From the NCBI GenBank assembly GCA_963762565.1, contig CAVXLD010000005.1, positions 384,001 to 448,000 of the forward strand: a DNA stretch of 64,000 bases, given 5' to 3'. The translations under genes and the position numbers were made by a program. Shown here one piece after another: positions 8,325 to 64,000 of this stretch. The stretch is from an uncultured Verrucomicrobiae bacterium (GTDB lineage Bacteria > Verrucomicrobiota > Verrucomicrobiia > Chthoniobacterales > JAFAMB01). The stretch's first letter is position 1. Each line of letters begins with the position of its first letter. The notes under the pieces are model-generated. The model worked only from the letters and a program-made list of their open reading frames with translations. It was not told the origin of the DNA and made no database searches.

Positions 8325-8499
8325 ACAGTAAGCACGTAAGCAGTAAGCAGTAAGCGGTAAGCAGTAAGCAGTAAGCAGTAAGCAGTTTTATCATGACCTG
8401 GCTATCCAAAGCACCGACTAATTGTGGCGACGGCGCCGTAATCGAATGCCGCCTCGGCTGCTCGGCACTGCTCACTGCTTACAGCTTACTGCTTACTTC
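8325..8499. repeat. Inverted pair of 7-bp arrays: (GCAGTAA)n at 8325-8388 and (TTACTGC)n at 8465-8499
   Basis: About 9 units on the left and 5 on the right, separated by a 76-bp spacer. Confidence 0.92.
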
Positions 8500-10961: not shown

Positions 10962-10993
10962 GCGTATCGGCGTATCGGCGTGTCGGCGTGTGG
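10962..10993 (+). repeat. 8-bp array GCGT(A/G)TCG x4
   Basis: gcgtatcg gcgtatcg gcgtgtcg gcgtgtgg directly after the ALDH stop. Confidence 0.85.
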
Positions 10994-11179: not shown

Positions 11180-11785
11180 CTATCTAGCGCGGCGCTGACT
11201 GCGCATGCGATACATGCGCTCCGTGAAACCGCCCTCTTCTAGGAAATGTTTTCCGAGGCTAGCGAGCTGACGATCCAAGAGCGAGCAGGCGACCGCGATC
11301 AGTACGAGGGCGGCGTTCGCGGCGATTTCGCAGTACCGTTGCTGCCGGCGGCTATGAGCGAGACGGCTACGGGTCTCTCTCACCCATCGCGCCACTTCCG
11401 CTGCGCTGCCGCAGCGCGCATCGATGAGTTCTTGTCGTAGTGGCTCTGAAAAGGACCATTCCTTGAATCCTCTTTGGCGGAGAAAGTCTCGATAATCGCG
11501 CTTCAGCTCTTCGAGACTGAACCGTGCCGTATCAGTGAGCTTCAGCTCAGTCTTCTTTGAGGTGCCGCTGGAGGCACTCCCTTCAACGATATTCTGCGTG
11601 CCGCTCCTCGCGGCCTGGACCATCTGATCATGAGTGCGGCTACGTCTTTCGACGTACCGTTCGCAAAAGCGAACCGTCACATCGAAGCAGAGCTCCGCCA
11701 TCTGGAAACTTTTCAGCTTCCGGTACCCGCCATGCGGCGGGATAAGACCATCGCCGTCAGGCGTGTCGTCAGAACGTCTCTCCAT
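11180..11785 (-). CDS. Four-helix-bundle protein (IVS/bAvd-like fold) with C-terminal suffix domain
   Basis: HGGYRKLKSF, RTHDQMVQAARSGTQNIVEGS, ELKLTDTARFSLEEL..DY.DFL; suffix EIAAN...LLDRQL...F..EGGFTERMY. Start taken as ATG 11785. Confidence 0.88.
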   Translation of the reverse strand: MERRSDDTPDGDGLIPPHGGYRKLKSFQMAELCFDVTVRFCERYVERRSRTHDQMVQAARSGTQNIVEGSASSGTSKKTELKLTDTARFSLEELKRDYRDFLRQRGFKEWSFSEPLRQELIDARCGSAAEVARWVRETRSRLAHSRRQQRYCEIAANAALVLIAVACSLLDRQLASLGKHFLEEGGFTERMYRMRSQRRAR

Positions 11786-11848: not shown

Positions 11849-11960
11849 AGTAGACAGAGTGGACGTAGTGGACCCAGTAGACGGAGTAGCCACGACGATG
11901 AGCAGCCATCCGCTGTCCACTAGGTCCACTCCCGTCCACTCCGTCCACTCTGTCCACTTC
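11849..11960. repeat. Inverted pair of 9-bp arrays: (AGTGGACnn)5 and (GTCCACTnn)5
   Basis: 11849-11893 and 11915-11960. Confidence 0.9.
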
Positions 11961-51632: not shown

Positions 51633-51895
51633 TCTACAAAAAGGACGCCACAGGTTTACTGCAAAGCCTCCTCGGATTGAGCCACGGTCCGTGGCGATGG
51701 TCGGCTGGTGTCCAAGCTAGCGTGGCTACCGCAGTGCCGCTCGCTGCATTCACGTTGACGGGCCACCAATCGCTCAGGCTCTTGCATCGCTTGCCAGGGG
51801 CAAGAAAAGTGAGGGTCGCTGTTTCTAACTTTACTCGCATCGCCCATAATACGAAGAGATTAAACGTAATTATACAAGCAACCGCTGAAGTGTGA
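51629..51895 (+). pseudogene. N-terminal fragment of a FUSC-like membrane protein
   Basis: GPWRWSAGVQASVATAVPLAAFTLTGHQSL resembles FUSC N-termini, then degenerates; ATGA overlap with the previous gene. Confidence 0.4.
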
Positions 51896-54800
51896 TCGAG
51901 CTGTCAAGACAACTGGCGCACGATGATGAATGTGTGCTTTATCGTGCCCGGAGGAAGGAGGACGGGTCCCGGATTCTGGTTTTGGTACCTGCCGTGCAGC
52001 ATCCCAACCCGGACATTCTAAAACGTCTGGAGCACGAATACTCCTTGCGCGAGGAGCTTGATCGGGAGTGGGCTGTTAGGCCCCTGGCATTGAATCGCCG
52101 CGACGGGCAGACGACGCTGGTGCTGGAGGATCCGAGCTCTGCGGCTGTGGGGCTCGATCAATGTTTGGGGTCCGCCGGCATCCGCCAAAGTAGAACCGGC
52201 GCAGGCGCGGAACCGATGGAATTGGGCCGTTTTCTTCGGCTAGCGATCAATCTGGCGGCTGGACTGGACAAGCTCCATCGCCGGGGCCTCATGCACAAGG
52301 ATATAAAGCCGGCTCACATTTTGGTTGATCTTGAAACCGATAAAGTATGGTTCACCGGTTTCGGAATCAGTTCGCGTTTGGCTCGTGAACGACAGGCGGC
52401 TGAACCTCCCGAAGTGATCGCCGGCACACTGGCCTACATGGCGCCGGAACAGACCGGGCGAATGAATCGGTCGATTGATTCTCGCATTGATCTCTACTCG
52501 TTGGGCGTCACCTTCTATCAAATGCTCACCGGCGTTTTACCCTTCGCTGCGGCTGATCCGATGGAGTGGGTGCACTGCCATGTCGCCAGGCAGCCGGCGC
52601 CGCCGGCCGAAAGGTGGCCGGCGGTCCCGGGCGTTATCTCGGCAATCGTTTTGAAGCTGCTCGCCAAGGCCGCCGAGGAACGTTATCAAACCGCCGCCGG
52701 GCTCGAGGTCGATCTGCGGCGCGCCTTGGCCGAATGGGAGAGTCGAGGACGAATCGACGCCTTCCCGCTCGGAGAGCGCGACACGCCTGACCAGCTGCTG
52801 ATCCCTGAGCGCCTTTACGGGCGCGAGCGCGAAATCGCGAGCCTGCACGCCACCTTCGAACGCGTGGCAGCCGGGGGCGGGCCGGAGCTGGTTCTGGTCG
52901 AGGGCCAAGCTGGAGTCGGCAAGTCCGCGATGGTCCATGAGCTTCAGCGCGCGCTGGCGCAGCAACGCCGCCCCGCCCGCAACGCTTCCGCCGCGGCGGA
53001 AGCGGGTGGGCTGTTCGCGTCCGGCAAGTTCGACCAATACAAGCGTGACATCCCCTACGCCAGCCTGGCGCAGGCCTTGCTGAACCTGATCCGGCCTCTT
53101 CTGGCGAAGAGCGAGACCGAACTGGCGTCCTGGCGCGTCGCGCTTACCGCGGCGGTTGGCTTGAACGGCGCGCTTATGGTGACACTGCTGCCGGAGCTCG
53201 AACATATCATCGGCCCGCAGCCGCCGGTGGCGGAGCTGCCACCGCGCGACGAGCAGCGCCGGTTCCAGCTCGTGTTCCGGCGCCTCCTCGGTGTCTTTGC
53301 TCGACCCGAGCATCCGCTGGCGCTGCTCCTAGATGACCTGCAATGGCTGGACGCAGGGACACTCGATCTCCTCGAGGACCTACTGACGCAACCGGATCTG
53401 CAGCACCTGCTTCTTATCGGTGCTTATCGGGATGATGAGGTCACGCCCACGCATCCTCTGATCCGGCGGCTGGCGACGATCCGCCAAACCGGCGGACGCG
53501 TTCAGGTGATCGTCCTAAAGCCGCTTGGGCTCGATGACGTGAGCCGGATAGTTGCCGGTGCGCTGCACTGCGGCAACGCTCGACCTCTGGCCCGGCTTGT
53601 GCATGAGAAGACCGCCGGCAATCCGTTCTTCGCCATCCAGTTTGTGACCACATTGGCCGAGGAAGGACTGCTCATGTTCAACCGTGAGGCGGCCCACTGG
53701 ATTTGGGACCTCAAGCGGATACGCGCCAAAGGCTACACCGATAACGTCGTGGATCTCCTATTGAACAAGCTGCGCCGCCTGCCCGCTACAACACAAGCTG
53801 TCCTGAAGCGGCTGGCCTGCCTCGGGAACAGCGTGCAGATCGGTACCCTGGCCCTCTTCCAAAGCGAGAGCGAGGACGCCCTGCACGCGACCCTTTCGGC
53901 GGCGACACGGGCCGGGCTTCTGTTCCGGCAGCAAGGGACCTACAAGTTTCTGCACGATCGTGTGCGGGAGGCGGCCTACGCACTGATCCCGGACGGCGAG
54001 CGTGCGGCGGCGCACCTCACCATCGGTCGCTGTCTCGCCGCGCGCACCCCGCCTGGCGCGGTCGAGGAAAACATCTTCGAGATCGCCGGCCAGCTCAACC
54101 GGGGGGCCGCACTGATTAGCTCGGGAAAGGAGCGCGAGCAGCTCGCCGAACTGAACCTCATTGCGGGCCGGCGCGCCAAGTCCTCGACCGCCTATTCCTC
54201 AGCGCTGACTTACCTCACCGCGGGTGCGAGCCTCCTACCTGAAGACGCGTGGGAGCGCTGCCATGATCTCGCCTTCGCGCTCGAGCTGAATCGGGCTGAA
54301 TGCGAGTTTCTAACCGGCGCCCTGGCGGAAGCAGAAGCGCGCCTCGCCGAGCTGGCGGATCACGCCGCCACCCCCTCTGAGCGCGCAATGCTAACCCGCC
54401 TCCGGGTTGACCTCTTCATGACCCTGGGCCGAAGCGACCGCGCCATCGAGGTCGGCCTCGACTGCTTGCGCTACTTCAACGTTAACTGGTCAGTGCATCC
54501 GACGAAGAAGGAAGTCGAGGATGAATACGCACTGCTATGGCGGCAGCTCGGAGACCGGCCGATCGAAGGACTGGTCGACCTGCCCCGCATGGTCGATCCG
54601 GTCGCGTGCGCGACGGTGGACGTTCTCGCCTCCCTCGTGACACCGGCGCTGTGGACCGACGAAAATCTTCGCCGCCTGGTCATCGGCCGCATGGGGAATC
54701 TCAGCCTGGAGCACGGCAACAGCGACGCTTCGGGCTACGCCTACACGGCTGTGGGGAACGTGCTGGGGCTTTACTTCGGGGATTACAAGGCGGGATTCCG

Positions 54801-57630
54801 CTTTGCCCAGCTCGGGTTGGACTCTGTCGAGCAGCCGGGAATGGACCGCTGGAAGTCTCGGGTCTATCTGGCCTTCGGTAATCTCGCGAAACCATCGGTG
54901 CGTCATGCTCGCACGGACCGCCCGCTCGCGCGCTATGCTTTCGAAGCCGCGCAGCAGGTCGGCGACCTCGCATATGCCGGGATCAGCTGCAACAACGTCA
55001 TTACGCAGCTTCTCGCGAGCGGTGCCCCGCTCTCGGAGGTGCATCAGGAGGCCCAGGCGGGGCTCGACTTTGCGCGCCAGGCCCGTTTCGGTGTCGTCGT
55101 CAATCTGATCACCGCGCAGCTCGGGATGATCCGGACGCTTCGGGGCTTGACGCCCCTCTTCGGCTGCTTCAACGACGATACCTTCGAGGAGGGTCAGTTC
55201 GAGCAGCAGCTCGCGGCGGACCCAAATGTCGGGTCAACGGCCTTCATATACTGGATTCGCAAACTGCAGGCCCGCATCCTCGCCGACGATTACATCGCAG
55301 CTGTCGCCGCAGCCAGCAAAGCAGAACACCTCGTCTGGATGTCGCCGGTCATTTTCGAGCGGGCCGACTACCACTTCTACGCTGCGCTCGCGCTAATCGC
55401 GCTGTGCAATGCGGGGTCTGATGCCGAACGGGCCCAATACCGAGATAGCTTGGCCTCCCACCACCGCCAGCTCCAGGCTTGGGCCGAACACTGCCCGGAA
55501 AATTTTGCGAGCCGAGCCGCCCTGCTCGGCGGGGAAATTGCACGACTTGATGGCCGCGAGCTCGAGGCTGAGCATCTATATGAACAAGCTATCCGTTCGG
55601 CTCGTAGCAATGCATTGCTACACAATGAAGCGATAGCGTATGAGCGCGCTTCCACATTCTACCGAGCGCGCGGGTTCGACGAAATTGCCACGCTCTACTT
55701 TCAGAACGCCCGCCACTGCTATTTGCGCTGGGGAGCCGATGGAAAGGTGCGGCAACTCGACGAGCTGTACCCAAACCTCAGGACCGAAGGGGCCGCCGCC
55801 GGTCCTACAGGGCAGATTAAAGCGCAGACCGATCAACTTGATCTAGCTGCCGTAGTCAAGGTCTCGCAGGCTATCTCGAGCGAGATCGTGCCTGAAAAGC
55901 TGATAGAAACACTCTTAAAGGTGGCGCTCGAAAATGCCGGTGCTGAGCGCGGTCTTTTGATCCTATCACAAGGGGAGCAACATCGGATCGAGGCCGAAAT
56001 CAAGACGGACCTCGACCAGGTCCGGGTTCAGCTGCGGCATGCGCCGATAACCTCCTCCGAATTGCCCGGGTCACTCTTTTGGTATGTGATTCGAACTCAA
56101 CAGAAGATCATTCTCGATGATGTGTCGGATAGCAACATGTTCTCCGATGATGACTACTTCCGGCAGAGGCGCCCGAGGTCAATTCTTTGCCTGCCGCTGG
56201 TAAAACAAACCAAGGTGGTTGGAGCCCTTTACCTGGAACATAACTTGGCTCCGCGGGTATTCACTCAAAAGCGGTTGGCCATGCTGGAACTGTTAGCCTC
56301 TCAAGCTGCGATCTCGTTGGATCATGCCCGGTTGTACTCGCAGCTAAGCCGCGCCAACGAAAACCTCGAGCAGGAGGTCAACGAACGGCTACGGGCGGAA
56401 GCCGCCGCGCGCCGAAGTGAGGCTTACTTAGCGGAAGCGGAGTCGCTCAGCAAATGCGGCAGTTGGGCGTTAAAACCCGCCACCCAAGAGATCACCTACT
56501 GGTCGCCGGAACGCTACCGCCTGTTTGGGTTTGATCCGGAGGCTGGCGTACCCTCCTACGAGGCCGTTCTCCAGCGAGTTCATCCTGACGACCGGACAAG
56601 ATGGCTTGAAAACACCAAAGAGGCGGAAGCGCGAGATTCCAGCCGTGAGTTCCGAGTTGTTCTTCCGGACGGCGAGATCAAGTACCTGCACGGAGTAGGT
56701 CATCCCGTTTTCAGTGAATCGGGCGAACTCGTCGAAATCATCGGGGCGGCTATCGACATCACCGAACGCAAACGCGCAGAGGAACAACAGCGCGAGGCGC
56801 AGGCACAGCTGGCTCACATGACGCGAGTGGCGACCCTCGGTGAGTTGGCTGGATCAATCGCTCATGAAGTGAAGCAGCCGCTCACTGCTATCATTAACAA
56901 TGCTGATGCCTGCCTCGCTCTGTTGCCAACTGAGATTAGTAAGCTCGACGAGGTGCGTGAGGCATTATCGGATATTATCTCTGACGCCGATAGGGCCAGC
57001 GCCGTGATTGAGCGAATTCGGGGGCTGATTAAGAAGTCGCCGCCGCAGAAGAGCCGGATAGATCTTAATGAGACAATCGGTGGAGTAATCGCTCTGGCCC
57101 GCGGCGAACTAGACCGCCATGGAGTGTTATTACTGACCAGGCTTGCCAATGACTTGCCTCCCATCCTGGGCGATCGAATCCAACTGCAGCAAGTGCTTCT
57201 CAATCTGATCATCAACGCCATCGAGGCGATGAGTGGTGTGACTGAGGGTCCGCGCGAGCTTCAGATACGTTCGGAGAAAATAGCCAAGGCGTGCAGCGAA
57301 TCGGAGCGCCTGATGCCGATACGCTCCGACCGCCGCCGGACCGAGACGCGGACACAGCCAGACGCGCGTCATGAGGACCCGGGATCGTCTTTGGCCGAAA
57401 CGGAAGCAACCTACGCCCTGGTTTCCGTGGCAGACTCAGGTCCGGGGCCGAACGCAAACGCGCTGGATCGTCTCTTTGACGCGTTTTACACTACAAAGCC
57501 TGAGGGATTGGGAATGGGGTTGTCGATCAGCCGTTCTATTGTTGAAGCTCATGGAGGGCGGCTATGGGCGGGGGCAAATGTGCCGAAAGGCGCTCTGCTT
57601 CAATTCACGCTACCGATTGCTAATGACTAA
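51892..57630 (+). CDS. Hybrid Ser/Thr kinase - AAA ATPase - TPR-like - GAF - PAS - histidine kinase
   Basis: HKDIKP, GTLAYMAPEQTGR, Walker A GQAGVGKS, LDDLQW, GAF (RSILCLPL, LYLE), PAS (VHPDDR), AHEVKQPL, NLIINA, GMGLSI. Confidence 0.93.
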   Translation: MIELSRQLAHDDECVLYRARRKEDGSRILVLVPAVQHPNPDILKRLEHEYSLREELDREWAVRPLALNRRDGQTTLVLEDPSSAAVGLDQCLGSAGIRQSRTGAGAEPMELGRFLRLAINLAAGLDKLHRRGLMHKDIKPAHILVDLETDKVWFTGFGISSRLARERQAAEPPEVIAGTLAYMAPEQTGRMNRSIDSRIDLYSLGVTFYQMLTGVLPFAAADPMEWVHCHVARQPAPPAERWPAVPGVISAIVLKLLAKAAEERYQTAAGLEVDLRRALAEWESRGRIDAFPLGERDTPDQLLIPERLYGREREIASLHATFERVAAGGGPELVLVEGQAGVGKSAMVHELQRALAQQRRPARNASAAAEAGGLFASGKFDQYKRDIPYASLAQALLNLIRPLLAKSETELASWRVALTAAVGLNGALMVTLLPELEHIIGPQPPVAELPPRDEQRRFQLVFRRLLGVFARPEHPLALLLDDLQWLDAGTLDLLEDLLTQPDLQHLLLIGAYRDDEVTPTHPLIRRLATIRQTGGRVQVIVLKPLGLDDVSRIVAGALHCGNARPLARLVHEKTAGNPFFAIQFVTTLAEEGLLMFNREAAHWIWDLKRIRAKGYTDNVVDLLLNKLRRLPATTQAVLKRLACLGNSVQIGTLALFQSESEDALHATLSAATRAGLLFRQQGTYKFLHDRVREAAYALIPDGERAAAHLTIGRCLAARTPPGAVEENIFEIAGQLNRGAALISSGKEREQLAELNLIAGRRAKSSTAYSSALTYLTAGASLLPEDAWERCHDLAFALELNRAECEFLTGALAEAEARLAELADHAATPSERAMLTRLRVDLFMTLGRSDRAIEVGLDCLRYFNVNWSVHPTKKEVEDEYALLWRQLGDRPIEGLVDLPRMVDPVACATVDVLASLVTPALWTDENLRRLVIGRMGNLSLEHGNSDASGYAYTAVGNVLGLYFGDYKAGFRFAQLGLDSVEQPGMDRWKSRVYLAFGNLAKPSVRHARTDRPLARYAFEAAQQVGDLAYAGISCNNVITQLLASGAPLSEVHQEAQAGLDFARQARFGVVVNLITAQLGMIRTLRGLTPLFGCFNDDTFEEGQFEQQLAADPNVGSTAFIYWIRKLQARILADDYIAAVAAASKAEHLVWMSPVIFERADYHFYAALALIALCNAGSDAERAQYRDSLASHHRQLQAWAEHCPENFASRAALLGGEIARLDGRELEAEHLYEQAIRSARSNALLHNEAIAYERASTFYRARGFDEIATLYFQNARHCYLRWGADGKVRQLDELYPNLRTEGAAAGPTGQIKAQTDQLDLAAVVKVSQAISSEIVPEKLIETLLKVALENAGAERGLLILSQGEQHRIEAEIKTDLDQVRVQLRHAPITSSELPGSLFWYVIRTQQKIILDDVSDSNMFSDDDYFRQRRPRSILCLPLVKQTKVVGALYLEHNLAPRVFTQKRLAMLELLASQAAISLDHARLYSQLSRANENLEQEVNERLRAEAAARRSEAYLAEAESLSKCGSWALKPATQEITYWSPERYRLFGFDPEAGVPSYEAVLQRVHPDDRTRWLENTKEAEARDSSREFRVVLPDGEIKYLHGVGHPVFSESGELVEIIGAAIDITERKRAEEQQREAQAQLAHMTRVATLGELAGSIAHEVKQPLTAIINNADACLALLPTEISKLDEVREALSDIISDADRASAVIERIRGLIKKSPPQKSRIDLNETIGGVIALARGELDRHGVLLLTRLANDLPPILGDRIQLQQVLLNLIINAIEAMSGVTEGPRELQIRSEKIAKACSESERLMPIRSDRRRTETRTQPDARHEDPGSSLAETEATYALVSVADSGPGPNANALDRLFDAFYTTKPEGLGMGLSISRSIVEAHGGRLWAGANVPKGALLQFTLPIAND

Positions 57631-58912
57631 GATGTCTCAGACAAGCCTAGACGGGATTCTACCGAGATTCTGGCGCACAATCGCGTCGGCTTTGCTTGGC
57701 TGCATTCTTCTCGCGTTGGTGATCTTTGTTTGCTTTCAATTGCATACCAGGTTGGGGATTGTTGCTCTTTTCTGTCTGCTTACAATTGTTATCCTCTCGC
57801 TTCAGGGCCGCTTCTTGGTGGCGCTTTTTTGCTCGGTGCTCGCAACCCTGGGTCTGGACTACTTCTTTACGCAGCCGGTTTTCAGCTTAGCCGTGACTCG
57901 GCCGGAGGATATTGCCGCGCTGCTTACTTTCTCGGCGATTGCATTGGTTGTCAGTGCGCTGGGCTCTAAACTGCGGAAATCGTATTGGGAACTCGCCCAA
58001 GAAAACACCGAGCGCAAACGGGCGGAAGAAGAGCTGCGTGAAAAGGAGGCCTCCTTGCGCGAAGCGCAATCAAGTTTGGCTCATGTTAGCCGGCTGACTA
58101 CGATGGGAGAATTGGCAGTGTCAATCGCGCATGAAGTCAACCAGCCGCTCACCGCGATCCTCAATAACGCCAACGCCTGCCTGGCCCTACTGCCGAGGGA
58201 GACCAAGGATGTGGACGAGCTCAGCGCGGCCTTGTCGGATATTGTTAGTGACGCCCACAGGGCAAGTGCCGTGATCGCGCGCATTCGAGAACTGGTTGAG
58301 AAGGTGCCCCCGCAGAAGAGCCGGCTAAATATTAACGAGACCATAGGGGAAGTGATCGCTCTGGCCCGTGGCGAATTGAATCGTCATGGAGTGTTACTGC
58401 AGACCAGCCTCGCCGATGACTCGCCGTCCATCATGGGCGATCGAATCCAGCTGCAGCAAGTGATTCTCAATCTGATCATCAACGCCATGGAGGCGATGAG
58501 TGGTGTGACTGACGGTTCACGCGACCTATTGGTCAGTTCGCAGAATGTGACCGGAATGCCGGGCGAACCGAAGCAAGTCAGGCTCGCTGAAACTGTCGGG
58601 CTGGAGATTGACCGCCGAATACCGAAAGCCGACTTGTCCGACGGAGTCCCGCGTACCGGGACGAAGTCAGAATGCCGAACGCAAAACGCGTACGTGTTGG
58701 TATCTGTGGCGGATTCAGGCCCAGGGCTGGATCCAAAGGACCTGAATCGTCTTTTCGACGCGTTTTACACGACTAAGTCTCAAGGCCTGGGAATGGGATT
58801 AGCAATCAGCCGTTCCATTGTGGAAGCTCACGCAGGACGGCTTTGGGCGATGGCGAATGTGCCTAGAGGAGCGCTGTTTCAGTTTACGTTACCTATCGGA
58901 CAGAGTGAATAA
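57623..58912 (+). CDS. Membrane sensor histidine kinase (DUF4118-like TM domain, HisKA, HATPase)
   Basis: TM helices with LDYFFTQP.FSL; AHEVNQPL, DSGPG, FYTTK..GLGMGL. Start 57623 or 57632. Confidence 0.9.
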   Translation: MTKMSQTSLDGILPRFWRTIASALLGCILLALVIFVCFQLHTRLGIVALFCLLTIVILSLQGRFLVALFCSVLATLGLDYFFTQPVFSLAVTRPEDIAALLTFSAIALVVSALGSKLRKSYWELAQENTERKRAEEELREKEASLREAQSSLAHVSRLTTMGELAVSIAHEVNQPLTAILNNANACLALLPRETKDVDELSAALSDIVSDAHRASAVIARIRELVEKVPPQKSRLNINETIGEVIALARGELNRHGVLLQTSLADDSPSIMGDRIQLQQVILNLIINAMEAMSGVTDGSRDLLVSSQNVTGMPGEPKQVRLAETVGLEIDRRIPKADLSDGVPRTGTKSECRTQNAYVLVSVADSGPGLDPKDLNRLFDAFYTTKSQGLGMGLAISRSIVEAHAGRLWAMANVPRGALFQFTLPIGQSE

Positions 58913-58941
58913 CGCTGGCATAGTGCGTTGCCGTGCTAGCT

Positions 58942-58983
58942 GCGAAGAGCGGTAAGCCATAAGCCGTAAGCAGTAAGCAATCT
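58942..58983 (+). repeat. 7-bp array GC(A/C/G)GTAA upstream of the four-helix-bundle gene
   Basis: gcggtaa gccataa gccgtaa gcagtaa gcaatct. Confidence 0.88.
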
Positions 58984-58986
58984 ATT

Positions 58987-59442
58987 ATGACTGATTTAGA
59001 CGAAACGTTTCGGCCAATGAGTAAAGGCTTTGTGAAGGACTACACGGACCTCCTTGCGTATCGGGCGAGCTTTCAGCTGAGCAAGGAAATTTTTGAAACG
59101 ACGAAGCAATTCCCTAAGGAAGAGGTATATGCGTTAACCGACCAATTTCGCCGTGCTATAAGGTCTGTGGGAGCCAACATTGCAGAAGCGTGGGGCAAGC
59201 GGCGGTACGAGAAGCATTTCATAAGTAAGCTCACCGATGCAGATGCCGAACGCTTGGAGACCCAACACTGGCTCAGAACCTGGTATGCTTGCGAATATGT
59301 CAGTAGCAATCAGGCCGAGAAAATGAACGAAAGATTGCTAGAAATTGGTCGTCTTTTGAATGGCATGATCGAAAGGTCATCCGCTTTTGTGATCAGGGAT
59401 GATCGTGTGCGGGAGGACCCTTTGATCGATGAATTCTTTTAG
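58987..59442 (+). CDS. Four-helix-bundle protein (23S rRNA-IVS protein / bAvd-like family)
   Basis: DLLAY, FPKEEVYALTDQFRRAIRSVGANIAEAW.KRRY..HF.SKLTDADAE..ETQHWL, EIGRLLNGMI. Start may be 59017. Confidence 0.92.
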   Translation: MTDLDETFRPMSKGFVKDYTDLLAYRASFQLSKEIFETTKQFPKEEVYALTDQFRRAIRSVGANIAEAWGKRRYEKHFISKLTDADAERLETQHWLRTWYACEYVSSNQAEKMNERLLEIGRLLNGMIERSSAFVIRDDRVREDPLIDEFF

Positions 59443-59460
59443 CTTATCGAAACTGCGTCA

Positions 59461-59495
59461 CATACGCTTACTGCTTACTCCTTACTGCTCCTGAT
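59461..59495 (+). repeat. 7-bp array TTACTGC, reverse complement of the upstream array, abutting the next start codon
   Basis: catacgc ttactgc ttactcc ttactgc tcctgat ATG. Confidence 0.88.
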
Positions 59496-60113
59496 ATGGT
59501 CGAGCCGGAATCCACGGTATTTGTGGTAGATGACGACCCGTCGATCTGTCGCTCGATCGAGCGGTTAATCGGGCCCGCCGGGTTCAAAGTTCAAAGCTTC
59601 CGGTCGGCAGCTCAATTTCTCGCGCATGGTCGACCGTCAGGTCCGGCATGTCTAATACTTGATGTCCAGCTGCCCGGACTGAGCGGTTTGGATCTGCAGC
59701 GCGAACTAACCAACTCGGGAATCCAACTCCCCATTATCTTCGTGACGGCCCACGGTGATATCCCCATGACCGTGCGTGCAATGAAGGGTGGAGCGGTTGA
59801 GTTTCTAACGAAGCCATATCGCGCCGCACAACTGCTCAGCGCTATTCGGGCAGCCCTCGAGCGAGATCGCACCATGCTCCAGCAGCGGATTGAGGTGGCA
59901 CAACTGCATAGTCGTTACGATTTGCTTACGCCCCGAGAACGAGAAGTGCTTGCCTTTCTCGTATCAGGGCTGCTCAACAAGCAGATTGCAGGCGAATTGG
60001 CCACCACGGAAAGAACGATCAAATTCCATCGTGCTAACATTATGCGCAAGATGCAGGCAGAGTCGGTCGCGGATCTGGTTAAAATGGCGCAAAAGCTGGG
60101 GCTGGGGGAGTAG
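59496..60113 (+). CDS. FixJ/TodT/NodW-type response regulator (REC plus LuxR HTH)
   Basis: VFVVDDD, LILDVQLPGLSG, TAHGDIPMTVRAMK, FLTKP, LTPREREV, NKQIA, TIKFHR. Confidence 0.95.
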   Translation: MVEPESTVFVVDDDPSICRSIERLIGPAGFKVQSFRSAAQFLAHGRPSGPACLILDVQLPGLSGLDLQRELTNSGIQLPIIFVTAHGDIPMTVRAMKGGAVEFLTKPYRAAQLLSAIRAALERDRTMLQQRIEVAQLHSRYDLLTPREREVLAFLVSGLLNKQIAGELATTERTIKFHRANIMRKMQAESVADLVKMAQKLGLGE

Positions 60114-60114
60114 G

Positions 60115-60392
60115 GAATAGCAGATAGCAGATAGCAAGTAAGGAGTTCAAGGAGTGTTGGAGTAGTCGAGGCGCGAAGCGCTGACCCCGAAAGCTTTCTG
60201 GGCTGGCAAGAATTTAGCCTGGCTGCGCTTTTTTTCATCTACCTAGGGTTTGCTGCGCTCACCTCTAGACTAAATTCTCCCGCGCCTTCGGCGCTAAATA
60301 CCTACCGCGCTGCACGGGCGGGCCGAATGTCGTCAGATCGTCGTGTCGCACACGCGCTCGTTGGCGGCGTTTTCGGCGTTGTCGGCGTTCCC
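60115..60392. repeat. Composite intergenic repeat tract: 7-mers AGATAGC, REP-like doublet 60170-60295, 9-mers GGCGTTnnC at 60366-60392
   Basis: Read directly; GAATTTAGCCT pairs with AGACTAAATTC. Confidence 0.65.
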
Positions 60393-60407
60393 GCTCGTTC
60401 CAACCCC

Positions 60408-60426
60408 TGTACCAAGGAACAGTAGA
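60408..60426 (+). promoter_or_regulatory. Conserved upstream motif TGTACCAAGGAACAGTAGA (second copy TGTACCAAAGGACAGTAGA at 62238-62256)
   Basis: 17 of 19 positions identical; both precede REC-domain genes; imperfect palindrome. Confidence 0.6.
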
Positions 60427-60477
60427 TTTGTTCTTTAGATATCTTTAATAACTAAACATCTAGCTGAAGAAACGCCT

Positions 60478-62019
60478 ATGTCCCCCAGCGCGAATATCTC
60501 GGAAGCACCGCTCGTTCTCATTGTAGACGATGACGTCTCAGTGAGGCGATCGACTGCGAGACTCCTACGTTCGGCAGGCATGCGGGCGGAAAGTTTCGCT
60601 TCGGCTCAGCAACTGCTCGATTCTGAGAACACAATCAAAGCGGATTGCCTGATCGTCGATGTACGAATGCCCGGTATAGACGGGCTGCAATTAATGCGCT
60701 GTCTAAGGGCACACGAGCAGCGCATCCCAGTGATTTTCTTTACTGGGGAGGCTGCTCAAGAAGATGAAGACTGGGCGCTCCGAGCGGGCGCTCTGGCTTT
60801 TCTGCGAAAGCCCGTCGGTAAAGGCGCGTTACTGCGGTTGATTCAGATGGCGCTCGAGAGTGCAAAGCATGCAAAGCAATTGGCCAAGGCAAACGAAGTG
60901 CTTCGGAGCTGCCTAGACAGGCTAGCCTCAGTTCCTGAGCTAGATGAGTTTCTCGGACAGGTTATGGCGGCGATGATCAGACAGCTAGGGGCAGTCTCTT
61001 GCATCTTAAAAGTGTTTAGCGCCGAACAAAAACGCCCGTTATTTGACCTGCTTTTCCAAGATGGCAGGGTAATCTCTCCCGCGGACGCTAGCTATCCTCA
61101 GGTTTATCGATCCTTGTACTTAGAAGAGCTAGACATTCAGCCCTGTACGACCGTGCTGCATCTTCAAGACCCTCAGACGATGCTAAAACCGGAGGGGCTA
61201 CGCAATTATCTGCTCGGCCAGGGCGTCAAGACTCTATTGACCATTCCATTGATCTCGCGTGGCGAACTCAATGGTGTATTGCGTTTCCGGTTTGCCGAGG
61301 AGTGCGATTTTACAGCCGAAGAACTTGAACTTGCTCGAGCTTTGGCGACACAAGCCAGTTTGGCAATTCACCTCGCTCAACTTGCAGAATCAGCAAAACG
61401 ATCTGCTGTGCTGGAAGAGCGCAATCGGTTGGCTGGCGAGATTCACGATTCACTGGGTCAAAGCTTTGCCGCTGTTTGCATGCAGCTCGCGCTTGCAGCA
61501 GAAGAGACGCAAAACAACCGCAAAGCGGTTCGCGGCCAAATAGGGCGTGCGTTAGAGTTGGCTAGGTTTGGTTTATCCGAAGCGCGTCGTTCGGCATTGA
61601 GCCTGCGATCGCAGGTCATCGAGGAGTTAGGATTCGTCGAGTCCCTCAAAATGTTGGCCGAGCGCTCAACTATCCCGGGCCGGTTGCTCTGTACCTTTCG
61701 GTGCAACCTCGAGAACGACGCCGGCCTGCCGGTCGGGATCCGCCAGGATTTACTGCGAATTGCGCAAGAGGCGATTAGTAACGCAATGCGCCACGCCGAG
61801 CCCACAGCAATTGAGGTCAGTCTGCGCTTAGATCGGACCGATCTGATCCTCAAAGTCACTGACAACGGGTGCGGAATGGCCAATACAGAAGGGATCAGAT
61901 ACGGATTCGGTTTCGTTAACATGCGAGCAAGAGTGAAAAACCTGAATGGTTCATTAAACACCCGCAGCGCGCGCGGTCGCGGAACGAGCATTTTGGTTAC
62001 TGTGCCGGTTGAGGTTTAG
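60478..62019 (+). CDS. Hybrid REC - GAF - HisKA_3 - HATPase sensor kinase
   Basis: IVDDD...IVDVRMP...LRKP; EERNRLAGEIHDSLGQ; QEAISNAMRH; DNGCG; GFGFVNMRAR. Confidence 0.92.
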   Translation: MSPSANISEAPLVLIVDDDVSVRRSTARLLRSAGMRAESFASAQQLLDSENTIKADCLIVDVRMPGIDGLQLMRCLRAHEQRIPVIFFTGEAAQEDEDWALRAGALAFLRKPVGKGALLRLIQMALESAKHAKQLAKANEVLRSCLDRLASVPELDEFLGQVMAAMIRQLGAVSCILKVFSAEQKRPLFDLLFQDGRVISPADASYPQVYRSLYLEELDIQPCTTVLHLQDPQTMLKPEGLRNYLLGQGVKTLLTIPLISRGELNGVLRFRFAEECDFTAEELELARALATQASLAIHLAQLAESAKRSAVLEERNRLAGEIHDSLGQSFAAVCMQLALAAEETQNNRKAVRGQIGRALELARFGLSEARRSALSLRSQVIEELGFVESLKMLAERSTIPGRLLCTFRCNLENDAGLPVGIRQDLLRIAQEAISNAMRHAEPTAIEVSLRLDRTDLILKVTDNGCGMANTEGIRYGFGFVNMRARVKNLNGSLNTRSARGRGTSILVTVPVEV

Positions 62020-62225
62020 CGGTTCACGGTTCACCGTTCGCGGTTCGCAGTTGGTAGTTTGCACTTGAAGACGCGAAGCGTTTACTCCCAGTCTTTCGGG
62101 ACAGGAAAGAATTTAGCCTTCGGCTGAGACTTTCACCCGCTTCACGGCAAAAATCCCTAATGCGAGGATCTACGGCAAACTGCAAACTGCAAACCGCCAA
62201 CTGTGAACCGCGAACGGTGAACCCG
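62020..62225. repeat. Inverted pair of 7-bp arrays with co-varying units
   Basis: Left cacggttcaccgttcgcggttcgcagttggtagtttgca; reverse complement of right cacgggttcaccgttcgcggttcacagttggcggtttgca. Confidence 0.92.
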
Positions 62226-62286
62226 TGCCCTTTCACCTGTACCAAAGGACAGTAGAACTCCAAGCGCCTCTAAATTAATCACCACA

Positions 62287-62679
62287 GTGGCCCCAAACGC
62301 AAATGCAAGCGAATCAACGCTCGTTATTGTTGTGGATGATGACGCTTCGGTCGCTAACTCGACCTGCAGACTCATACGCTCATTGGGCATGCGAGCCGAG
62401 GCATTTTTCTCCGGAGCAGATTTACTGAATTCGGGACGCGCAACCGAGGCCTCCTGTGTGATTCTGGATGTACGCATGCCGAATCTGGATGGCTTGCAGC
62501 TACAGCGGCGTCTTAAGGAAATTAGGTCGAGTATTCCCGTAATCTTCTTCAGCGCTCACGCGGGCAAGGAAGAGGAAGACCAGGCGCTGCGCTCCGGTGC
62601 GGTGGCTTTTCTGCGCAAGCCCGTGCATAGGGATGACTTGCTGCGCGTAATTCATATGGCCCTCGAACGAACGAGTTAG
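62287..62679 (+). CDS. Single-domain response regulator
   Basis: VVDDD, ILDVRMP.LDG, FFSA, FLRKP; paralog of the REC domain at 60478. Confidence 0.92.
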   Translation: MAPNANASESTLVIVVDDDASVANSTCRLIRSLGMRAEAFFSGADLLNSGRATEASCVILDVRMPNLDGLQLQRRLKEIRSSIPVIFFSAHAGKEEEDQALRSGAVAFLRKPVHRDDLLRVIHMALERTS

Positions 62680-62800
62680 CCTGCATTTCTCACAGATCTG
62701 AGCGGCTAGGAAAGAGCGCCAGTGTGCTTGTGAGAAATGCGGGCTGAGCCGCAATCAGCGGCTGGCCTCGTCCAAGAGCGTGAGATTTGTGGGTTAGGTA
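62679..62800. repeat. Dispersed block of about 120 bp also present at 49097-49200; contains a 16-bp stem (62679-62694 with 62729-62744)
   Basis: GCCTGCATTTCTCA...CCGCAATCAGCGG...CCAAGAGyGTGAGATTTGyGGGTTAG in both places. Confidence 0.75.
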
Positions 62801-63273
62801 AATGGGTCAAGACATGACTGAGTCCGATTGGGTCGTTGCGAGGACCAGAAAACTATTCACAACGAGATCCCGAAGGCCACAAAGACTGATTTTGAACGGT
62901 CCGACTTTGTGGCCTTTGTAATCCTGGTGTTAACATTTCTGGCTCTTTGCGCCTTTTCCGCGAGTTGCGAATGTTGAGCCGCTGGCAGTGAAACCCGGCG
63001 CTCCCTGTACTAATAGACAGTAGAATTGCCGTATCCAACGATGTTAGTTCATTGTCGCCCACTAAAACCTAACAATCGAAAAGAGACACAAAAATATGGA
63101 CCTCAATGCCTACGTCTTGGCCATGGCTATAATCGCCACACCTAGACACCAGAGAAACCAGCAAATAGTTCCTGAGTCGGAGTTCACTCCGTTCGATCTC
63201 CGTTACCTCAGGGAACTGCCCGTGAACAGTAGCCAACCGGGACACATTAGTCGACAAGGAAAGGCACAGAACA

Positions 63274-63981
63274 ATGTATCTGAAGCCCTACTGGCCTGAA
63301 GCGCCAGGCATTTTATCGGCGGTTGGAGAAGTGCGAGAGAGCGGCGCGTCCCACGAATCGCTGATCACTGTGGTTATTGCCGATGACCATCCCGTAATCC
63401 TAGAAGGATTAGTAAAGATCCTAAACTCGCAAAAAGACATAAGGGTCGTGGCTAGTGCCACCGATGGCGAGGGAGTAAGCAAGCTCTACTATCAGTTTCT
63501 TCCGGACGTGCTCATACTCGATCTTCGCCTGCCAAAGAAGGATGGGCCGCAGGTGCTTAACGAGCTAGTGACGTGTGGCAAATCCAAACCGCAGGTGATC
63601 ATAATGACAACTTTCGATTGTGAAGAAACTATTTTCAAGACCGTCCGTGCAGGCGCCAGGGGTTACTTGGTCAAAGTTGCAGACCCTCAAGAAATTCGGG
63701 AAGCAGTGCGTTGCGTCGCGAAAGGGGAAACCTTCTTTCCTTCAGAGGTTGGGTTGAGACTAGCTAAATCGGTCGCCTCCCCTAGACTGTCGAAGCGAGA
63801 AATGGAGGTTCTTGGGTGTGTAGCTAGTGGTAAAGGCAATAGAGAGATCGGGCGCAGTCTCGACGTCAGTGAAGGGACTATAAAGTTTCATGTGAAGTCA
63901 ATCCTTCGAAAGCTGGATGCAGTCGGCCGTGCTGAAGCGATTGCCATTGCTGCCAAACGCGGGATCATCCAATTAGCTTAA
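63274..63981 (+). CDS. NarL-family response regulator (REC plus LuxR HTH)
   Basis: IADDHP, PDVLILDL.LP, GYLVK, LSKREMEV, GNREIG, EGTIKFHV. True start may be downstream. Confidence 0.93.
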   Translation: MYLKPYWPEAPGILSAVGEVRESGASHESLITVVIADDHPVILEGLVKILNSQKDIRVVASATDGEGVSKLYYQFLPDVLILDLRLPKKDGPQVLNELVTCGKSKPQVIIMTTFDCEETIFKTVRAGARGYLVKVADPQEIREAVRCVAKGETFFPSEVGLRLAKSVASPRLSKREMEVLGCVASGKGNREIGRSLDVSEGTIKFHVKSILRKLDAVGRAEAIAIAAKRGIIQLA

Positions 63982-64000
63982 TCGCCGTGACTAACGCGCC

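Follow-up and report, generated by a model that had tools for sequence, protein, structure and literature searches.

A 64,000-nucleotide stretch of DNA (hereafter the window) contains a small four-helix-bundle gene that is bracketed by inverted arrays of 7-base repeats and lies between a histidine kinase gene and a response regulator gene. The gene and its arms are probably an optional selfish or hitch-hiking cassette, which would represent the ORF-bearing 23S rRNA intervening sequence in an operon-borne version. As judged from sequence comparison among related soil bacteria, the cassette was inserted at this junction, decays there and has been exchanged between lineages. Sister cassettes have been swapped at a second junction, and the protein is under selection.

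The gene (58987-59442, plus strand), identified by ORF call and profile matches, encodes a protein of 151 amino acids that belongs to the TIGR02436/PF05635 (23S_rRNA_IVP) family. In profile searches, the product scored 100.7 bits against TIGR02436 (cut-off 24) and 101.7 bits against PF05635 (cut-off 33.8), which bears out the four-helix-bundle assignment made in the preliminary description. The score against PF22296 (44.2 bits) exceeds the cut-off of 40, and that against NF033474, the Avd profile, is 42.5 bits, under the cut-off of 80. An AlphaFold model of the protein (pLDDT 86) has four long helices. Its best Foldseek structures are Xcc0516 (2gsc) and BT_0352 (2rld), followed by a weaker match to Avd (4dwl, TMq 0.64), and the predicted model deviates from the Xcc0516-like fold by an rmsd of 1.2 Å across 113 columns. 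Xcc0516 and BT_0352 are also the best sequence matches, and by homology to 2GSC and 2RLD the cassette protein may be a homopentamer. The protein has invariant glutamate and arginine (E/R) residues. TIGR and Pfam profiles and the ESM Atlas gave no nuclease family match, and the ESM Atlas search returned members of the same family only. Between the window gene and its copy in genome G002, dN/dS is 0.10, and on such substitution estimates the intact cassette genes are under purifying selection.

Both host genes lie on the plus strand, as does the cassette gene. The upstream gene (57632-58912), called by ORF and profiles, encodes a membrane sensor histidine kinase with DUF4118, HisKA, and HATPase_c domains, its start being placed by inference at the ATG right after the stop of the preceding gene. 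The downstream gene (59496-60113) encodes a FixJ-like receiver/LuxR response regulator that scores 198.6 bits against NF006900, under the cut-off of 255. The profiles thus agree with the earlier placement of the small gene between a histidine kinase and a FixJ-type regulator. A spacer (58913-58941, plus strand) separates the kinase stop from the left arm and is the break zone of gene-less alleles, near 58924. A search for sigma-70 promoters and terminators across 58700-60500 gave no match, and Rfam found one tRNA only in the whole window, with rRNA absent. The region from 51892 to 64000 is a dense signaling cluster, a horizontally moved mosaic with a multi-domain kinase of 1912 amino acids and several regulators.

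The left arm (58942-58979, plus strand) is purine-rich and was recognized from the sequence, by TRF, and as part of the inverted pair I1/I2. It consists of a degenerate unit (58942-58948), four GCnnTAA heptamers (58949-58976), and a partial unit, GCA, that runs up to 58979. The pattern GCnGTAA fits three of the four heptamers, and TRF reports a period of 7 with 4.6 copies at 58948-58979. Seven nucleotides lie between the end of this arm and the ATG of the gene. The right arm (59466-59495, plus strand), recognized from the sequence and by TRF (3.4 copies, 59466-59489), is pyrimidine-rich; TTACT(G/C)C occurs three times in it, at 59468-59488, and a degenerate fourth unit ends at 59495, flush with the ATG of the regulator. 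The inverted arrays had been described as directly adjoining the gene on both sides. This holds for the left array and for the end of the right array at the next ATG, but the right arm begins 24 nt past the stop.

The arms are 83% complementary over 24 nt each and are separated by 487 nt. They pair in a second register as well, offset by 7 nt, and they pair with each other in both the MFE and the centroid folds of the 581-nt region, which is consistent with the proposed register-tolerant stem around about 490 nt. The arm-to-arm duplex reaches -34.7 kcal/mol, a value matched by 6 of 1000 random 45-mers from the window, but over its full 581 nt the region is not predicted to fold more stably than its shuffles (z -1.35, 9/100). 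On the sense strand, the stem mismatches of 52 cassettes comprise 46 G-U against 53 A-C, and those of 105 gene-less hairpins comprise 103 G-U against 85 A-C (p 0.21). Because there is no G-U excess among the mismatches, the idea of an RNA-level stem under selection is not supported, and sites or copying at the DNA level would fit. The covariation term of the stem (+2.49) comes from three alleles only, which are too few to inform.

A total of 94 regulator loci were examined, and 76 of them have a full regulator and an upstream kinase. A cassette or its remnant is present at six of these 76. The junctions that are free of it measure 20 nt or less in 68 of 70 cases, and the genes mostly overlap. 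In the kinase-end tree, a single clade of eight contains all six of these loci and is placed among overlapped junctions (support 97/74; 75 columns). This nesting indicates that the cassette is an insertion. The regulators that follow the cassette belong to two separate lineages, and a single clade is rejected (p-AU 2e-6; 22 rows, with the group named post hoc), suggesting that the cassette, either alone or together with the kinase end, was joined to a second regulator. The regulator tree of all 76 rows is a quick tree.

Locus alignments revealed alleles in different states at this junction. Intact alleles occur in the window, in G022, and at G002:C298, and the G022 allele has about 12 units per arm. 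In G000, the genome that contains the window, a paralogous cassette on contig C3 is split by a 270-bp insertion (G000:C3:44470-44739), which has inverted ends; its core, a dispersed element, occurs 25 times in the genome as near-full copies. The allele at G002:C37 is internally deleted. G020 retains a 3' remnant in which a single unit on the left and roughly 40 bases from the end of the gene precede the right arm; G098 has short arms without a gene; and L119 and L120 have no trace of the cassette. Contigs of sequencing runs provided an internal-deletion allele (X1) and an allele in which each side has shrunk to a single unit (X5, where 58909 is joined to 59491 across 22 intervening letters), and the database protein P0059 corresponds to a deletion that fuses half of the cassette protein in frame to the regulator. 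The 20-nt sequence that makes up the entire L119/L120 junction recurs in the loop of the residual arms of G098 (L287:1430-1505). Since the junction sequence recurs in that hairpin, L119 and L120 may be either pre-insertion or fully deleted alleles.

Most of the alleles seen at the kinase-regulator junction are thus broken or lost, and the alignments indicate that loss of the cassette is frequent and leaves ragged ends. The filled and empty alleles compared show neither a target-site duplication nor a precise boundary. The close empty alleles are mostly derived by deletion and not by precise excision, and none of them is demonstrably pre-insertion. A precise presence or absence at orthologous junctions had been named as a check; intact, broken, remnant, and empty alleles were all found, but the close gene-less alleles are ragged. 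The possibility that the gene is fixed at this junction in all relatives, which would have spoken against a mobile unit, is contradicted by the empty and remnant alleles.

The window and G022 differ less in the cassette than in the genes around it. Their dS is 0.091 for the gene, 0.41 for the regulator, and 0.75 for the kinase end (Fisher p 2e-5), and 276 of 279 nt of the cassette core are identical. G022 belongs to a different genus, and its rpoB is 79% identical to that of the window genome. The regulators nearest to that of the window are those of G098 (dS 0.055) and G020 (dS 0.092), which both come from alleles without the gene. The low dS of the gene, together with the gene-less state of the nearest regulators, fits recent re-acquisition or conversion, as far as these sequence distances can tell. 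The signaling region of the window has a median identity of 86-94% to genomes whose rpoB is 79% identical. When identity is followed in windows along the region, the median is 86%, the cassette reaches 97-98%, and 3 of 92 windows outside it reach 96%, with a second 96% tract at 62250-62450. Ordinary recombination can account for the low dS of the gene, given that the entire signaling region is a mosaic moved by horizontal transfer. The greater closeness of the cassette than of its flanks across lineages was seen in one pair, within this mosaic region.

A second junction, G000:C11:15941-16552, lies between genes that we take to be zwf and opcA. Cassettes with GGTGATT arms occupy it in G000, G003, and G005, and cassettes with CAGTAAT arms occupy it in G002 and G004. 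Across the four genomes compared, one type of protein shares 44-48% identity with the other. In the comparison of G005 with G002, both flanks are 96% identical, the proteins are 48% identical, and the units differ. A swap between near-identical flanks indicates that gene and arms travel together and that the unit goes with the protein and not with the site. Among 29 loci that have the upstream gene (including L313-L342), five carry full-length cassettes of the two types, one carries a decayed cassette, one carries a reversed fragment that adjoins an 8-mer array, and 22 carry none. Some of these 22 have hairpins that lack the gene and are built from at least four other units, and some have empty gaps that measure about 10-12 nt. 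The CAGTAAT-type clade is present at two further junctions. The earlier suggestion of a mobile unit accords with the presence and absence of alleles at the first junction, with a gene dS below that of the flanks, and with the swap at the second.

The genome of the window (6.1 Mb, 94% complete) has 1188 period-7 arrays, and neighboring array pairs of period 6-9 are inverted in 414 cases and direct in 31. Since the genome is crowded with arrays, chance adjacency of gene and arms was tested. Inverted arrays flank 36 of 4518 crudely called genes on both sides, and 12 of these 36 have the purine-rich arm upstream, as at the window locus; they comprise five PF05635 genes, one PF13366 gene, and six others. 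Seven of the eight PF05635 matches in the genome lie inside an inverted array pair, and these seven have six different units. A wider sample was built from 139 relative loci, of which 123 were full-length with complete flanks and 61 remained at less than 65% identity. The strict inverted-array score was passed by 39 of these 61 non-redundant relatives and missed by 22, compared with 0/70 for swapped flanks, 2/61 for direct orientation, and 2/120 for random small genes of this genome. These findings substantiate the predicted enrichment of inverted arrays around four-helix-bundle genes. The hosts of the cassette family come from several phyla, and the operon junctions occupied are many and unrelated. 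For 30 representatives with 7-base units, the unit distance to the nearest protein is 2.57 against 3.26 ± 0.19 after shuffling (0/2000 shuffles); kin are not independent in this comparison, and co-inheritance alone would produce such a correlation.

Several other loci touch on the same arrangement. A second four-helix-bundle gene, with the TIGR04258 suffix domain, lies in the window on its minus strand (11183-11785) outside any inverted pair; upstream of it is a gene-less 9-mer hairpin (11849-11958), and downstream is an 8-mer array (10962-10989). A PF05635 gene located 1.4 kb before the window (G000:C5:382068-382597) has 6-mer arms of the opposite, pyrimidine-first polarity, and its right arm is translated in frame as an acidic tail. 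PF13366 genes, presumably of the PD-(D/E)xK fold and GxxExxY type, occupy 11 loci in G000 (for example, C1:643910-644429, C1:116913, and C11:163341). At least four of the 11 are clearly bracketed by inverted 9-mer arrays, which is the cassette plan with a nuclease-fold protein. Two non-family genes, G000:C7:422788-423562 and C5:138157-138835, which we take to be sirtuin-like and methyltransferase-like, are bracketed with the cassette polarity; cargo capture is possible, or chance.

Repeats of the window family also form hairpins without a gene. One such hairpin lies in the window at 8326-8497, where TRF and the inverted-pair search found 8.6 and 4.4 units around an 80-nt loop. Across the genome, 18 of the 20 inverted pairs of this family have no gene, and the polarity is one way in 20 pairs and the other way in none. 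BLAST of the 18 gene-less loops against the gene gave no similarity. As no gene remnants are present in these loops, descent of a hairpin from the cassette is shown only at the kinase-regulator junction. Counts of arrays after stops and before starts were considered as evidence of function and set aside, since a hairpin of fixed polarity produces them automatically. Gene-less hairpins are often nested and mirrored on both sides, with one repeat family within another or inside or around REP-like palindromes, as in G000 C1:474117-474406, C10:396625-396911, and C3:478682-478996.

The preliminary description had seen no transposase or reverse transcriptase (RT) in the window, and none linked to the cassette was found in the genome. 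None of the 12 Y1 transposase (PF01797) matches has period 6-9 arrays within 900 nt. The cassette locus has no RT, and the four RT matches of the genome are all on other contigs; the one intact RT classified out of the four is a group II intron maturase. A RAYT or RT as the linked mobilizer was therefore rejected, there being no arrays near Y1 genes and the RTs lying elsewhere. No recurring nuclease or recombinase fusion partner was found in 71 longer homologues drawn from 8000 scored candidates, and the fusions were varied and mostly one-off. Eight sequencing runs matched, none with half of the sampled words, and four were compared as assembled contigs only. The single run recorded as RNA has, in its contigs, one near-identical piece of 197 nt within the gene (59199-59395), which is no proof of transcription, and the contigs of this one run contain no joined kinase-regulator form.

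In the cassette reading, these observations fit together as follows. The cassette sits at a normally tight stop-start junction and decays raggedly to gene-less hairpins and then to nothing. By the dS values, its interior was exchanged between lineages later than its flanks. Sister cassettes replace one another at a junction, and the repeat unit changes with the protein clade. The family-specific arms, the match between unit and clade, and the role of Avd in an RT-RNA complex make it reasonably likely that the cassette protein binds the repeat unit of its own arms. In that case, the arms would be strand-symmetric arrays of binding sites, and their reading on DNA would be at least as likely as on RNA. 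As no linked enzyme was found, movement may depend on recombination or repair by the host, with the bound arms as the source of bias. At close to even chances, the bound arms mark the ends of the cassette and bias these host processes so that it is copied into empty or decayed junctions. The resulting cycle of gain, decay, and re-gain would resemble that of a homing element, without a known nuclease of its own. It is conceivable, though rather doubtful, that the arms also pair in the transcript and are cut by RNase III, by analogy with the Coxiella element. Such cutting would split the operon mRNA and not splice it, and rejoining would be unlikely.

A host regulator offers a different explanation, in which the protein is a sequence-specific nucleic-acid binder, the junction arrays across the genome are its sites, its own arms are autoregulatory, and gain and loss are accessory turnover. 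The purifying selection on intact copies (dN/dS 0.10), the match of several large array families to the unit around one resident paralogue, and the position of arrays beside stops and starts are in line with it, as is the translational role proposed for TAACTGA arrays before start codons in the available text of PMC4679880. It is nevertheless improbable, because most alleles seen at the kinase-regulator junction have been disrupted or lost, cassettes that differ in unit take one another's place at a single site, and the stem mismatches have no sense-strand bias. Some large array families also lack a cognate gene among the eight matches of this 94% complete genome, while relatives have one. Less probable again is a passive by-product, in which slippage and arm-to-arm template switching in neutral DNA made the hairpins and a small mobile gene, unrelated to the repeats, landed in one of them. 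The 18 of 20 family pairs without a gene, many of them nested with other repeats, and the symmetry of the mismatches, which suits copying at the DNA level, would be expected on this account, and the convergent heptamer pairs of Xanthomonas are likewise given no mobile-element link in the text available from PMC4692102. Against it, the arms are specific to PF05635 and PF13366 genes and not to small genes generally, the polarity is fixed (20 pairs to 0), and the unit follows the protein and not the site, as in the nearest-protein comparison (2.57 vs 3.26), in which kin are not independent.

The preliminary description had offered, as one option, an intervening element of the mRNA. In the strong sense of this option, the stem is cut, the loop is taken out, and the flanks are joined again or stay together, which restores the translational coupling of kinase and regulator. 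This is very improbable. In the Coxiella element, as far as the text of PMC4990558 describes it, excision fragments the rRNA without rejoining. The stem at the present junction is short and interrupted, the region folds at z -1.35, the mismatches have no G-U bias, and no joined form was found in the contigs of the one RNA-recorded run. A selfish or hitch-hiking cassette remains the preferred explanation. Its widest extension is speculative and, on balance, unlikely: PF05635 proteins in general could be the agents of widespread mobile cassettes free of transposase, RT, and known nuclease, whose pentamers recognize their own 6-9-base units, drive copying into stop-start junctions, and seed the gene-less arrays with which many bacterial genomes are filled. 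PF13366 genes with inverted 9-mer arms would then be a parallel class, and 23S intervening sequences and the Avd of diversity-generating retroelements (DGR) would be domesticated offshoots.

The locus links two open questions, namely the role of the PF05635 family and the origin of abundant intergenic heptamer arrays. It supplies evidence at the population level, consisting of a decay series, a recent exchange across genera, and a swap with a matching change of unit. The question lends itself to direct testing, because the protein-repeat pairs are defined and filled as well as empty junctions occur in nature. Should the protein recognize a 7-base unit and its paralogues other units, they would be natural re-targetable nucleic-acid binders and a possible origin of Avd.

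Several known systems share parts of this design. Homing-endonuclease elements are gained at fixed sites, decay there, and are gained anew in a cycle. REP/REPIN-RAYT systems have a gene between inverted repeats that recur across the genome as gene-less doublets. The cassette differs from the latter in that its protein belongs to PF05635, with no HUH transposase or known nuclease, and its arms are tandem 7-mers. Membership in the REP-RAYT (REPtron) class was rejected on account of the enclosed PF05635 protein and the 12 Y1 matches that carry no arrays. GGGAATC arrays of Xanthomonas often form convergent pairs (PMC4692102), and TAACTGA arrays of Beggiatoaceae, Cyanobacteria, and Bacteroidetes often lie just upstream of start codons (PMC4679880); the available text of each gives no mechanism of spread. 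The cassette arms are likewise intergenic heptamer arrays, but they bracket a four-helix-bundle gene. In a term search, the texts of these two papers mentioned neither a four-helix-bundle gene nor one from an intervening sequence.

The proteins closest in sequence and fold are Xcc0516 (2GSC) and BT_0352 (2RLD), which are structures of five chains each without an assigned function, and the papers searched gave no repeat context or function for either. Avd is pentameric and contributes a positively charged barrel to an RT-RNA complex, according to the text available from PMC6182149. The cassette protein shares its fold (4DWL, 8UB7), as the Foldseek match and the PF22296 score indicate. Assignment as a DGR Avd was rejected, given the sub-threshold NF033474 score and the lack of an RT at the locus. 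The homology of PF05635-type proteins to Avd has been noted (PMC10053308), and genes of this type have been reported as insertions in cas loci (PMC3936711), again in the portions of these papers that were accessible. An operon-borne cassette class was not found described in the literature searched, which consisted of main texts and included few subscription papers.

The nearest parallel is the 23S intervening sequence of Coxiella burnetii. As described in the available part of PMC4990558, it spans about 430-550 nt and has an S23p ORF within terminal inverted repeats, with tandem GACAGAT heptamers of variable copy number before the ATG; RNase III has a site at the first of these repeats, and one strain carries a deletion of the ORF. 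The cassette likewise has an S23p-family ORF, terminal inverted repeats, heptamers upstream of the ATG, and a deletion-prone ORF, a plan that also recalls the Leptospira element. It was rejected as a true member of the 23S rRNA intervening sequences, being built alike but located outside rRNA. Unlike the Coxiella element, the cassette lies at a junction of protein-coding genes and has a different unit, and its gene is under purifying selection and has been exchanged between genera, as sequence comparison suggests.
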